From Candidatus Undinarchaeota archaeon (GTDB lineage Archaea > Undinarchaeota > Undinarchaeia > Undinarchaeales > UBA543): a DNA stretch of 10,623 nt. Positions 426 to 5,680 of this stretch are shown here, piece by piece (the first letter of the stretch is position 1; every line of letters begins with the position of its first letter). The position numbers and the translations under genes are program-made. The notes under the pieces are model-generated. The model was not told the origin of the DNA and did no database searches. It saw only the letters and a program-made list of their open reading frames with translations. The DNA lies in assembly GCA_964567575.1 (NCBI GenBank), contig CAZMMZ010000014.1, positions 1 through 10,623 of the forward strand, written 5' to 3'.

Positions 426-2381
426 ATGGAAAAACCAACAACAGAAACCACAGATCTCGCATTATTTGTAAGAACTTCTAGTTTACAAATTGTTAAATGG
501 GATAAGCAGCGAATTGCTGAAGCTCTCATAAATGAAACAGATATTGACCCAAAAGTTGCGCAATTCATATGTGCAGAAGTTGAAAGTTTTGTTAAAAAAG
601 AACGCATAAAATTCATTACAGCACCACTTATTCGTGAACTTGTTAATGCAAAACTCATAGAATATGGGTATGAGAATATCAGAAAACAGCATACTCGTCT
701 TGGTTTTCCTATTTTTGATGTTGAGCAAATCATTACAGCACATAATAAAGAAAATGCAAATGTTCCTCATGGTCCAGAAGCAACAAATCTAACACTTGCT
801 GAAGGTGTGAAAAAAGAATATGCGCTTCTGAATGTTTTCAGTTCTGATGCTTCTGATGCTCATATGAATGGGGATATCCATATGCATGATCTTGGTTTTA
901 TTGACCGGCCATATTGTTCTGGAAACTCTCTTGAATATGTAAAGAAATACGGACTTTCTCTTCCAAATTCACTTTCAATTGCAAAACCAGCAAAACATCC
1001 TGAAGTTCTTATTGGTCAAGTTATCAAATTTAGTGCAGCATTGCAAGGAACTTTTGCAGGTGCTATTGGATGGGATGCTGTTAATCTTTTCCTAGCTCCA
1101 TATCTAAAAGGAAAAACCGACAAAGAATTAAAACAATATGCACAGATTCTTATTTTTGAATTTGCACAACAAGCAGTTGCTCGTGGTGGTCAAAGTATCT
1201 TTTCAGATTTGAATCTTTATTGGGAAGTTCCAAAACATTTTGCTGATGTTCCTGCAATCGGCCCTGGGGGAGAATTTACTGGATTAACTTATCAGGATTA
1301 TGGTGAGGATGCAAAACGTTTCATTAATGCTTTGTTTGATGTTTATATTGAGGGAGATGCTCGAGGAAGACCTTTCTTTTTCCCAAAACCAAATCTCCAC
1401 ATCACTGAGAAATTCTTTAAAACTGATGGTAATGAAGAGTTCCTAGAAAAAGCTGCGACTCTATCATCAGAAATGGGTAATACTTATTACTTATTAGATC
1501 GCGGAGACACTGCAAAGATTTCTGAATGTTGCAGATTGTCATTTAAATTAGAAGCTGATGATCTTGAAGATGCAAAAACTCCTTGGAAAATGCGATACAG
1601 TGCAATGCACATCGCAACAGTTAATCTTCCAAGACTTGCATATCAAGCAAAAGGTGATGATGATAAATTGTTTGAACTTTTAAGAGAACGTCTTCAATTA
1701 ATTTGTAAAGCACATTCACAAAAGAGAAAGTTTGTTAAGAAATTACTTGACATGGAACAAAAAGGACCTCTTGGCATGTTAACAATGAAAGAAGATGGTG
1801 AGAATTATTACCGATATCATAAGGCATCTTTCTTAATTGGAATGCTTGGTCTTAATGAACTTATACAATTCCACACTGGTCATCAACTTCATGATTCTGA
1901 TGATGCATTCAAATTTGGTTTGCGAGTTGTTGCAACTATGAAAAAAGAAATTGAAAAACTTATGGAAGAATATGATATGAAATTTGTTCTTGAACAAACT
2001 CCTGCTGAAAGCACTGCACATCGACTTGCGCGTCTTGACATGCAAATGTATCCTACTGAAACCAAGAGTGTTATTAAAGGTCATCCAGAATTAAATGAAA
2101 TTTATTACACAAACAGCACGCAGCTTAATATTTCTGTGCCAGTAAATCCTATCGAGCGCGTAAAGAAAGAAGGAATGTTCCATCCAATGATTGAAGCTGG
2201 GAGCATTTCTCACTTGTGGCTTGGCGAATCACGTCCTGATCCTAGTAGCATATCCAACTTTGTAAAGAAGGTTTTCAAAGAAACCTTGAACGATCAAATT
2301 GCGTTTAGTCCGGAATTCACGCATTGTTTGGGATGTGGAAAAACTACTAGAGGTATACCGGAAGATTTTGGAGGTATGTAA
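426..2381 (+). CDS. nrdD: Class III anaerobic ribonucleoside-triphosphate reductase, catalytic chain (651 aa), lacking the C-terminal glycyl-radical segment
   Basis: Start moved from TTG 381 to ATG 426 because AGGAG (416-420) precedes it. N-terminal ATP cone; HxHDL...RPYCSG (Cys codon 915); finger loop SECCRL (Cys-Cys at 1527-1532); VNLPRLA; EQTPAES; YYTNS; only one CxxC (CLGC, 2325-2336) before TAA. No RVxG motif. Confidence 0.95.
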   Translation: MEKPTTETTDLALFVRTSSLQIVKWDKQRIAEALINETDIDPKVAQFICAEVESFVKKERIKFITAPLIRELVNAKLIEYGYENIRKQHTRLGFPIFDVEQIITAHNKENANVPHGPEATNLTLAEGVKKEYALLNVFSSDASDAHMNGDIHMHDLGFIDRPYCSGNSLEYVKKYGLSLPNSLSIAKPAKHPEVLIGQVIKFSAALQGTFAGAIGWDAVNLFLAPYLKGKTDKELKQYAQILIFEFAQQAVARGGQSIFSDLNLYWEVPKHFADVPAIGPGGEFTGLTYQDYGEDAKRFINALFDVYIEGDARGRPFFFPKPNLHITEKFFKTDGNEEFLEKAATLSSEMGNTYYLLDRGDTAKISECCRLSFKLEADDLEDAKTPWKMRYSAMHIATVNLPRLAYQAKGDDDKLFELLRERLQLICKAHSQKRKFVKKLLDMEQKGPLGMLTMKEDGENYYRYHKASFLIGMLGLNELIQFHTGHQLHDSDDAFKFGLRVVATMKKEIEKLMEEYDMKFVLEQTPAESTAHRLARLDMQMYPTETKSVIKGHPELNEIYYTNSTQLNISVPVNPIERVKKEGMFHPMIEAGSISHLWLGESRPDPSSISNFVKKVFKETLNDQIAFSPEFTHCLGCGKTTRGIPEDFGGM

Positions 2382-2382
2382 A

Positions 2383-2583
2383 ATGACTGAAGAAGAAAAA
2401 GGAAAACCAGAAATGGGAACTTGCTTTAGTTGCGGTTCTGACAAAGTTGAAATAATGACAAGAGTTACTGGTTTTTTCTCTAAAGTAAATTCATGGAATA
2501 AGGGAAAAATTGGCGAACTCAAAAAAAGAAGAGATGCAATTAAAGGAAATAACCAAGCTCTAAAAATGAAAAATGAAACTTAA
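2383..2583 (+). CDS. nrdD: Stand-alone NrdD C-terminal module (66 aa): second Zn-binding CxxC plus glycyl-radical loop
   Basis: MTEEEKGKPEMGTCFSCGSDKVEIMTRVTGFFSKVNSWNKGKIGELKKRRDAIKGNNQALKMKNET. CFSC at 2422-2433; RVTGFF with the Gly codon at 2470; WNKGK..E...R tail typical of the NrdD C-terminus. GGAGGT (2370-2375) lies 7 nt before ATG 2383, so this start is preferred over the track's TTG at 2299. Confidence 0.88.
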   Translation: MTEEEKGKPEMGTCFSCGSDKVEIMTRVTGFFSKVNSWNKGKIGELKKRRDAIKGNNQALKMKNET

Positions 2584-2857
2584 AGTATTTACAAAAAAAG
2601 AGTGTCCAAATTGCCCAGCTGCGAAGAAATTGGTGAAAGAATTAGAGGAATCTGGAATTCCTGTTGAATATTATGATGTGGAAGATGTTGATGGTATGAC
2701 TGAAGGCAGCTTCCACATGGTAATGGCAACCCCAACAACCGTGCTTGTTAATGATTCTGGTGACGAAGTTGATTCTTGGCGTGGTGCAGTTCCTGATGCT
2801 GAAAAAATACGCGAATACTTTAGTGGTGGGGTAAAGGAACAAAAGGATGAAGTTTAA
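2573..2857 (+). CDS. nrdH: NrdH-like thioredoxin/glutaredoxin-fold protein (CPNC), probable electron donor to NrdD
   Basis: 94 aa; VFTKKECPNCP active site; ATPT cis-Pro motif; position between nrdD and nrdG. Confidence 0.85.
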   Translation: MKLKVFTKKECPNCPAAKKLVKELEESGIPVEYYDVEDVDGMTEGSFHMVMATPTTVLVNDSGDEVDSWRGAVPDAEKIREYFSGGVKEQKDEV

Positions 2858-3542
2858 AGGTTTTGCAGAAACAAGTTTTGTTGATTGGGATGGTAAAGTT
2901 AGTTCTGTTGTATTTACTCCTGGTTGTAATTTTCGATGCCCATTTTGTTTTAATAAAGATCTAGTGCTTAAACCAGAGACTCTTGAAGATGTTCCTGAAG
3001 AATTTATTTTTGATTTCTTAGAAAAGCAAAAAGATTTCATTGATGGTGTTAGTATCACGGGGGGGGAGCCAACAATGATGGTGGAGCTTCCTGGTTTTTG
3101 TGAGAAATTAAAAGAAAAAGGTTTTCTTGTAAAATTGGATACTAATGGTTCAAATTTTGAAATTTTAAAAGATTTAATTGAAAAGAAACTTATTGATTTT
3201 GTTGCAATGGATATTAAAGGTCCTTGGGATATTTATTCTAACTTTACTGGAGTTACAAAAGATGTGGAGTCCATTAAAAAAAGCGCCGAGTTTTTAATGA
3301 GTTCAGGAATTGATTATGAATTCCGAACAACTGTAATTCCTAGCTTACATTCTCTTGAAGTTTTTGAGAAAATGGTTACTCAAATTAAAGGCGCTAAGAA
3401 ATATTGCATACAAAAATTCCGACCTGGTATGTGTATTGATCCTTCATTTAATAGCGAAAAAGCTCAAACTGATGAAGAAATACAACCATATGTGGAAATA
3501 GCGAAAAAGTATGTTGACAAAGTAAAATTTAGAGGAAAATAA
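2847..3542 (+). CDS. nrdG: Anaerobic RNR activating enzyme (radical SAM)
   Basis: GCNFRCPFCFN (CxxxCxxC), SITGGEPT, KLDTNGS, DFVAMDIK, YEFRTTV; operon context. Confidence 0.93.
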   Translation: MKFKGFAETSFVDWDGKVSSVVFTPGCNFRCPFCFNKDLVLKPETLEDVPEEFIFDFLEKQKDFIDGVSITGGEPTMMVELPGFCEKLKEKGFLVKLDTNGSNFEILKDLIEKKLIDFVAMDIKGPWDIYSNFTGVTKDVESIKKSAEFLMSSGIDYEFRTTVIPSLHSLEVFEKMVTQIKGAKKYCIQKFRPGMCIDPSFNSEKAQTDEEIQPYVEIAKKYVDKVKFRGK

Positions 3543-4853: not shown

Positions 4854-5657
4854 TTACTCCTCTGTTGGTTCCTGAACAACTCGTATTTTGTCGATTCTTT
4901 TCTCTAAATCTTTAACAAATGGTGCATTTTCTGTATGTTCAAGCTGATTACTACATTTCATACATCTAAATCCCATATCAGATGCTTCTTCAAAAACTAC
5001 TCGCGTGCATTTGCTTTTACACTGATAGAAATGGTTATTTTTTTCATATTCTAACATTTCCATTAATTCTTTGAGTTGTTTTTCTTTATCCTGATTTATT
5101 GCATTTGAAATTCTTTCTGGGTGTATTTTCCAATAATAAGTATACCAGCCTGTTTTTGATCTGTGTCTTCTGTAAGTTACAATCCCAGCTTCATACATTG
5201 CATACAAATGTTTACGGATGATGTTTGCTTTCAGTTCCATTTTCTCTGCAAGATCAACATCTGAGCGCTCTTTGCGAGAGATTTGATTCACAACTTGCAT
5301 TCCTTCTTCTCCAAGAAGGTTTTCTAAATATCCTGATAATTGTTTATCTTCTAAGAATGATACTTTTTTTCGAGAAACTCTTTTGGTTTTCTTTGCTGTG
5401 ACTTTCTTTCCTTTTGCTGTAATCTTTTTACCAGTTAATTTCTTTTTTACTACTTTGATTTTCTTTATAGCTTTTGGTTTAATCTTTGTAGATTTCTTTA
5501 CTACTCTTTTCTTAGAAATAGTCTTTTTTGTAACTGTTTTTTTTGTCTTCCTACCCAAGATTTTCTTGAGTAATGGTAATCGCTTTTTTGTAACTTTCTT
5601 AGAACTCTTTACGATTTTGGCGGTTTTTTTCTTGTTAGTTTTTACTTTACCCCTCAT
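4854..5657 (-). CDS. tfe: Archaeal transcription factor E (TFE alpha) with a ~100-aa lysine-rich N-terminal extension
   Basis: C-terminal ~165 aa: winged helix (DVDLAEKMELKANIIRKHLYAMYEAGIVTYRR..KTGWYTYYW) and Zn ribbon (FYQCKSKC...FRCMKC..L). ATG 5657 is preferred over GTG 5675 from TATA spacing; the start is uncertain by 6 codons. Confidence 0.92.
   Translation of the reverse strand: MRGKVKTNKKKTAKIVKSSKKVTKKRLPLLKKILGRKTKKTVTKKTISKKRVVKKSTKIKPKAIKKIKVVKKKLTGKKITAKGKKVTAKKTKRVSRKKVSFLEDKQLSGYLENLLGEEGMQVVNQISRKERSDVDLAEKMELKANIIRKHLYAMYEAGIVTYRRHRSKTGWYTYYWKIHPERISNAINQDKEKQLKELMEMLEYEKNNHFYQCKSKCTRVVFEEASDMGFRCMKCSNQLEHTENAPFVKDLEKRIDKIRVVQEPTEE
5392..5433. repeat. Imperfect 21-bp tandem duplication inside the TFE tail (KKITAKG / KKVTAKK)
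   Basis: tttgctgtgactttctttcct (5392-5412) versus tttgctgtaatctttttacca (5413-5433). Confidence 0.5.
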
Positions 5658-5680
5658 GACTTTACCCGTGTGCACCTTCT

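Follow-up and report, generated by a model that had tools for sequence, protein, structure and literature searches.

The window, a stretch of 10,623 nt, is contig 14 of a 745-kb archaeal genome (82% complete) whose close relatives are labelled Undinarchaeota or Undinarchaeales. Its + strand carries an nrd operon in which genes for a large chain and a small chain of NrdD, the oxygen-sensitive class III (anaerobic) ribonucleotide reductase that produces DNA building blocks, are followed by a thioredoxin-like gene and NrdG:

426-2381, + strand: NrdD large chain, 651 aa from the probable start at ATG 426 (open frame from TTG 381, 666 aa)
2325-2336, + strand: first Zn knuckle CLGC, codons TGT 2325-2327 and TGT 2334-2336, the last structured element of the large chain
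2337-2378, + strand: large-chain tail GKTTRGIPEDFGGM, 14 residues after CLGC, the last residues forming the free end
2370-2375, + strand: Shine-Dalgarno-like GGAGGT inside the large-chain Gly-Gly codons, 7 nt before the small-chain ATG
2379-2381, + strand: large-chain stop TAA, a single base (2382) before the next start codon
2383-2583, + strand: NrdD small chain, 66 aa from ATG 2383, in the +1 frame relative to the large chain, radical-bearing
2422-2433, + strand: second Zn knuckle CFSC, small-chain Cys14 (2422-2424) and Cys17 (2431-2433)
2458-2475, + strand: glycyl-radical loop T26-R-V-T-G30-F of the small chain
2573-2857, + strand: thioredoxin/NrdH-like redoxin (CPNC; Pfam Thioredoxin_3, 2.3e-11), overlapping the small-chain gene by 11 nt (2573-2583)
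2847-3542, + strand: NrdG-type radical-SAM activase (CNFRCPFC, a CxxxCxxC motif; Pfam Radical_SAM 4.8e-20, Fer4_12 2.1e-10)

Elsewhere in the window (4854-5675, - strand), a match to TFE (TFIIE-alpha) spans only residues 118-213 of a 273-aa open reading frame, which thus has a long N-terminal extension.

The Pfam NRDD profile (PF13597; gathering cut-off 26.2 bits) is divided between the two chains, with positions 1-517 of 562 matched by the large chain (8.8e-128, 427.8 bits) and positions 520-560 by the small chain (8.4e-10, 38.4 bits). The large chain, deposited in the protein database as P0045 (651 aa), comprises an ATP-cone (a weak Pfam match), a ten-stranded catalytic barrel with the finger-loop ECCRLS—aligned onto CCRL of Thermotoga maritima NrdD among the PDB NrdD matches—and an end just after the first Zn knuckle. 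CLGC occupies residues 634-637 counted from ATG 426 (649-652 of the 666-aa open frame), and the C-terminus reads ...FSPEFTHCLGCGKTTRGIPEDFGGM before the TAA. The small chain, which begins MTEEEKGKPEMGTCFSCGSDKVEIMTRVTGFF... and has 39 free-standing homologues, carries the glycyl-radical motif RVxG[FYW], so that this motif lies on a separate 66-aa chain and not on the polypeptide of the NrdD body; the T, R, V, T, G, and F of the loop are invariant in 32 small chains. The redoxin encoded at 2573-2857 is likely the reductant of this double-Cys finger-loop NrdD. No intact nrdD was found elsewhere in the 82%-complete assembly, which holds two small-chain copies only.

One-chain relatives in public genomes read FSPEFTSCLDCGKxxRGLxxxCxxCGSxxVEGITRVTGFF across this region, a C-x2-C-x10-C-x2-C pattern, and the split point was confirmed as the loop between the two CxxC pairs of the zinc ribbon. 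An earlier, sequence-only reading had placed the split between these halves, with CLGC on the large chain and CFSC (Cys14/Cys17) on the small, and this placement holds to the base: the interval 2325-2433 opens with the codon for the first Cys of CLGC and closes with that for the last Cys of CFSC. In an alignment of 45 sequences (44 one-chain relatives and the read-through of a same-genus relative), the invariant positions include C634/C637, C664/C667, the Arg-Gly following the first pair (R642 and G643, in the large-chain tail), and the radical Gly. Aligned with NrdD of Prevotella copri (8P23), the read-through places CLEC on CLDC, CTNC on CPKC, and RVTGF on RITGY, the last of which surrounds Gly711 in P. 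copri. In that enzyme, the glycyl-radical domain (GRD) spans residues 676-739 and includes a structural Zn site that precedes Gly711 (PMC11226230); published accounts treat the zinc site of NrdD as structure-forming, serving to orient the radical glycine (PMC5704485, PMC9669993). All four cysteines ahead of the radical loop are present at our locus and aligned to solved sites, divided 2+2 between the chains. As a separate observation, two one-chain relatives (P0092 and P0154) have a degenerate radical motif, with GITKLNGL and GILRMRSTPIGYW replacing ITRVTGF.

We scanned one genome per species and found, among the best matches, 62 one-chain, 20 split, and 3 free-standing NrdD cases, the split loci belonging to Undinarchaeota, Hydrothermarchaeota, Micrarchaeota, and others. 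All 20 split loci have the first CxxC on the large chain and the second on the small chain, with the large-chain stop 2-14 residues past the first CxxC and the small-chain start 4-19 residues ahead of the second. Other details vary from locus to locus—the frame offset is 0, +1, or +2, the stop codon TAA, TAG, or TGA, and the gap between the two genes -3 to 126 nt (mostly -3 to 18 nt). With few exceptions among the 20, the small-chain ATG has an SD-like GGAGG or GAGGTG 5-12 nt upstream. Within the window's genus alone, the gene pair is in frame in one genome and out of frame in two. Of the best 120 cluster representatives for the large chain in the protein database, 57 belong to the split type, and every one of them ends with CxxC. 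Conservation of the four cysteines in split homologues had been named beforehand as a check on a shared zinc site, and all four are kept in every split homologue examined (20/20 loci, with the large-chain pair also kept in 57/57 clusters); given this and their invariance in the 45 aligned sequences, the arrangement is not due to chance.

It is hardly credible that the split is unreal at the protein level, whether through an error in sequencing, a pseudogene, or recoding into one chain by programmed read-through or frameshifting. The stop and start are only 1 nt apart in the window and relatives have an in-frame stop, as a one-chain product would have it, but numerous independent assemblies repeat the same cut with every possible frame offset, three different stop codons, gaps of -3 to 126 nt, and, nearly always, an SD-like site ahead of the small-chain ATG; no intact nrdD was found in this 82%-complete genome; and small chains are also encoded at a distance from any nrdD. 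Compared across genomes, the sequences indicate that the split is a conserved two-gene layout and not an error. In a FastTree phylogeny of large chains from which the split region was left out, all 19 split large chains (19/19) formed one cluster with moderate support (74), compatible with a single old split that then spread through Undinarchaeota, Hydrothermarchaeota, Micrarchaeota, and others.

Two variants of the small chain were also observed. In Hydrothermarchaeota loci L031-L039 and L043, it continues in frame into the downstream thioredoxin-like domain (CPRC), and the fused proteins measure 156-169 aa (in L031 at about 2265-2771); in the window, the small chain and redoxin are separate, 11-nt-overlapping genes. 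At locus L108 (4001-4315; P0025, also P0026), the small chain has an extra N-terminal CxxC...CxxC zinc ribbon besides its half-site, in an operon with the same order as in the window: large chain, small chain, redoxin, NrdG.

For a structural view, we built an AlphaFold2 model of the in-frame relative G002, whose small chain is 79% identical to that of the window, using the 44 one-chain homologues as the alignment and reading through the TAA; the model is accordingly one artificial chain in which Gly stands for the stop codon, and AlphaFold places no metal in it. Mean pLDDT was 77.5 and pTM 0.78, with values of 82 and 77 for the blocks that bear the two knuckles. Values dropped below 50 only across residues 649-660, which comprise the large chain's final three residues, the read-through stop, and the small chain's initial eight residues; both knuckles are thus ordered, and disorder is confined to the free ends. 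Compared with solved NrdD structures, the model has the standard fold (Z 24-28). With GRD-ordered NrdD, the match extends as far as residue 703 (for 8p2s_B, Z is 28.4 and rmsd 3.6 Å across 514 residues), but with GRD-disordered NrdD it stops at residues 628-629, which correspond to P. copri 674-675. Because the match to GRD-disordered structures ends there, the model indicates that the first knuckle, retained here by the large chain, is part of the mobile rigid body in one-chain enzymes.

We regard the position of the split and its conservation, the invariance of the four cysteines, the separate translation of the chains, and the fit to the canonical fold as established. Together, sequence comparison and the model make it likely that the operon encodes a two-subunit class III ribonucleotide reductase with a cut zinc ribbon and a predicted 2+2 inter-chain Zn(Cys)4 site; as a prediction, this site is well supported by comparison. 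The cut would lie in the loop joining the two knuckles of the enzyme's C-terminal zinc ribbon, leaving the large chain with the catalytic barrel and the first CxxC; everything from the second CxxC onward, including the glycyl-radical loop and the C-terminal helix, would be supplied by the 66-residue small chain. On assembly of the chains, the usual Zn(Cys)4 site would be rebuilt with two ligands from each, the metal replacing the lost peptide bond and keeping the mobile radical domain tethered as its Gly loop moves back and forth from the barrel to the activase NrdG. Since the cut falls exactly between the two Cys pairs, one Zn ion probably staples the small chain to the large, and we infer that zinc bound 2+2 would add to the affinity between the chains. 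It is also a reasonable hypothesis that assembly may be sensitive to zinc supply and thiol oxidation and that the module may shuttle to NrdG. The sequence-only reading, which raised these points, had likewise proposed one Zn ion bound 2+2 as the tether; conservation of the cysteines, alignment to solved NrdDs, and the AlphaFold model all favor this, although the clasp is not the sole mode of docking (see below).

A site of another kind, in which two small chains share the zinc or the Cys pairs form redox-active disulfides, is highly unlikely. The Rad50 hook shows that a single CxxC is able to dimerise around Zn (PMC5093744), and a redoxin gene overlaps the small-chain gene here and is fused to it in some lineages; against this, the same four cysteines form one site in the ancestral one-chain enzymes, both knuckles are ordered in their canonical place in the model, and the large-chain pair would be left without a partner.

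Among the free-standing NrdD-type radical modules we looked at, half-sites occur where a partner half-site exists. Modules in the full-length-NrdD genomes looked at have either four cysteines of their own (L022, G030) or none (L023, G033), and a module on a metagenome contig outside these genomes (L109) has no Cys pair. As read from these sequences, the Cys pattern fits the predicted 2+2 site. A different NrdD subclass (CPxH...CxxC...C) is split after its CxxC at two further loci, L007 (G027:C22) and L012 (G003:C18), where the small chain begins M...R-T-[RK]-C-E-V-Y-S-R-[VP]-V-G-Y and has one Cys only, the CxxC staying on the large chain; this cut is a second, independent split just ahead of the radical loop. 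The existence of Cys-less modules and of a second split type with most ligands on the large chain implies that the clasp is not the only docking mode.

Several further features of these modules were recorded. The NrdD-type modules that lack a Cys pair (L109 4001-4306, L023 1598-1891, P0037, P0039, P0040, and P0043) are about 100 aa long and carry, at the N-terminus, an unrelated domain of about 60 aa; one is found among rubrerythrin, prismane, and desulfoferrodoxin genes, and another between two radical-SAM genes. A 48-aa small chain with one CxxC (P0034; L110 4001-4147), on a contig labelled Calditrichia, belongs to a series of short ORFs on one strand, one of them for a DUF7447 protein, and the region has a viral look.

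It is possible, if somewhat doubtful, that the Zn site is shared but merely a local structural element, with the small chain held mainly by insertion of the Gly loop and by the C-terminal helix and with no regulation by zinc or thiols. In the one-chain enzyme of P. copri, the Gly loop lies buried, none of its surface being accessible to solvent, and the tail runs over the top of the barrel (PMC11226230), so comparable docking could hold the small chain without Zn, and the Cys-less modules and the differently placed split point the same way. On the other hand, the whole GRD is disordered as a unit in one-chain enzymes, implying that a detached, untethered GRD would diffuse away, and both Cys pairs are fully kept in the 20 split loci and the 57 clusters. 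We retain the inter-chain Zn(Cys)4 tether as the preferred reading.

The second small-chain copy in the window's genome lies on contig 8:

G000:C8:49675-49803 (L003 1495-1671; L027 9694-9870): second small-chain paralogue, 58 aa, with CQEC and TRVTGFF

This paralogue is conserved in 3/3 genomes of the genus, where the truncated large chain is its only possible partner. In the window's genome, it follows genes for two rubrerythrins, desulfoferrodoxin, endonuclease III, and an HxlR regulator; in G002, the other genome with an annotated neighbourhood, HxlR precedes it and a 266-aa protein with 2x[4Fe-4S] follows. A 44%-identical Fe-S protein is encoded about 0.8 kb from a Cys-less radical module on an unrelated metagenome contig that also carries genes for rubrerythrin, prismane (hybrid-cluster) protein, and desulfoferrodoxin. 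These neighbourhoods suggest that the second paralogue is a stress-linked alternative subunit, and its position beside oxidative-stress genes hints that the small chain is exchangeable; the operon-adjacent small chain is the regular subunit and not a spare. More speculatively, and in our view improbably, the shared Zn site could be a reversible clasp through which one large chain exchanges radical subunits: the operon copy would serve normal conditions, the second paralogue would replace oxygen-cleaved subunits, and the Zn thiolates, by being oxidised or exchanged, would control when the stump is released. If exchange does take place, an O2-cleaved small chain would leave a 29-residue stump still on the zinc, so the clasp would have to open.

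The predicted two-subunit enzyme has several partial parallels. The fold (Z 26-28) is shared with one-chain NrdD, the partner of NrdG, from phage T4 (1H79), T. maritima (4U3E/4COI), P. copri (8P23/8P2S), and Streptococcus thermophilus (9D3X), and the four-Cys site, the Gly-radical loop, and the adjacent activase are as in one-chain NrdD, with the double-Cys finger loop as in T. maritima; the differences are that the chain is here cut within the zinc ribbon, with a predicted inter-subunit metal site, and that the radical is on a 66-residue protein of its own. Class II ribonucleotide reductase of Pseudomonas aeruginosa is also found in pieces, as NrdJa/NrdJb (PMC9669993), but NrdJb consists of whole folded domains including a complete zinc finger. 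Phage nrdD may be interrupted by introns, inteins, or homing endonucleases (PMC3653736), and thus is in pieces through mobile elements, whereas the present split contains no insert and runs through the middle of the metal site; a mobile element at the split was considered and rejected, the gap being 1 nt in the window and -3 to 18 nt in most loci.

As metal sites, both the Rad50 zinc hook and the Lck-CD4/CD8 clasp offer comparisons from proteins unrelated to NrdD. The likeness to the Rad50 hook drawn in the earlier reading is sound in that two cysteines come from each of two chains, but the hook is homotypic, and the heterotypic Zn(Cys)4 tether of Lck-CD4/CD8, again with two Cys per chain (Kim et al. 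2003, as cited in PMC5093744), is the closer analogue. Unlike clasp and hook, the NrdD halves would descend from one intramolecular zinc ribbon, and their shared site is a predicted one. Small free-standing glycyl-radical proteins resembling the small chain include GrcA/YfiD of Escherichia coli and Y06I of phage T4, autonomous cofactors for pyruvate formate-lyase, and cofactors of the GrcA/YfiD type accompany a full-length enzyme and rescue its oxygen-cleaved form; a 2026 review describes spare-part proteins as known only for formate lyases (PMC13450708). The present small chain differs from GrcA/YfiD in matching NRDD only (Pfam, E 0.01 or better) and not the PFL-type Gly_radical family, and in being, as the adjacent chain, the enzyme's only radical domain, with no full-length enzyme alongside and with the genome's sole NrdD body lacking a radical domain; GrcA, for its part, has no metal half-site.

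Class III ribonucleotide reductase is usually seen as a single catalytic chain in which the zinc ribbon and the radical loop move together. We found no description in the searchable literature of a class III enzyme whose zinc ribbon is cut, nor of a split or two-chain NrdD, of spare parts for a ribonucleotide reductase, or of NrdD from Undinarchaeota; split-type proteins are publicly deposited under the plain name anaerobic ribonucleoside-triphosphate reductase, and genes for the small radical subunit are easily overlooked or annotated as fragments in genome records. A natural cut of the zinc ribbon, kept across several archaeal phyla, is a ready experimental system, and it opens questions about the role of the zinc site, how the radical domain reaches its activase, and whether an O2-damaged radical domain can be swapped without remaking the 75-kDa enzyme. 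Natural heterotypic Zn(Cys)4 tethers are very few, and the split NrdD is a likely addition to them; if small chains are indeed exchanged, it would also be the first ribonucleotide reductase with a radical subunit that can be replaced.
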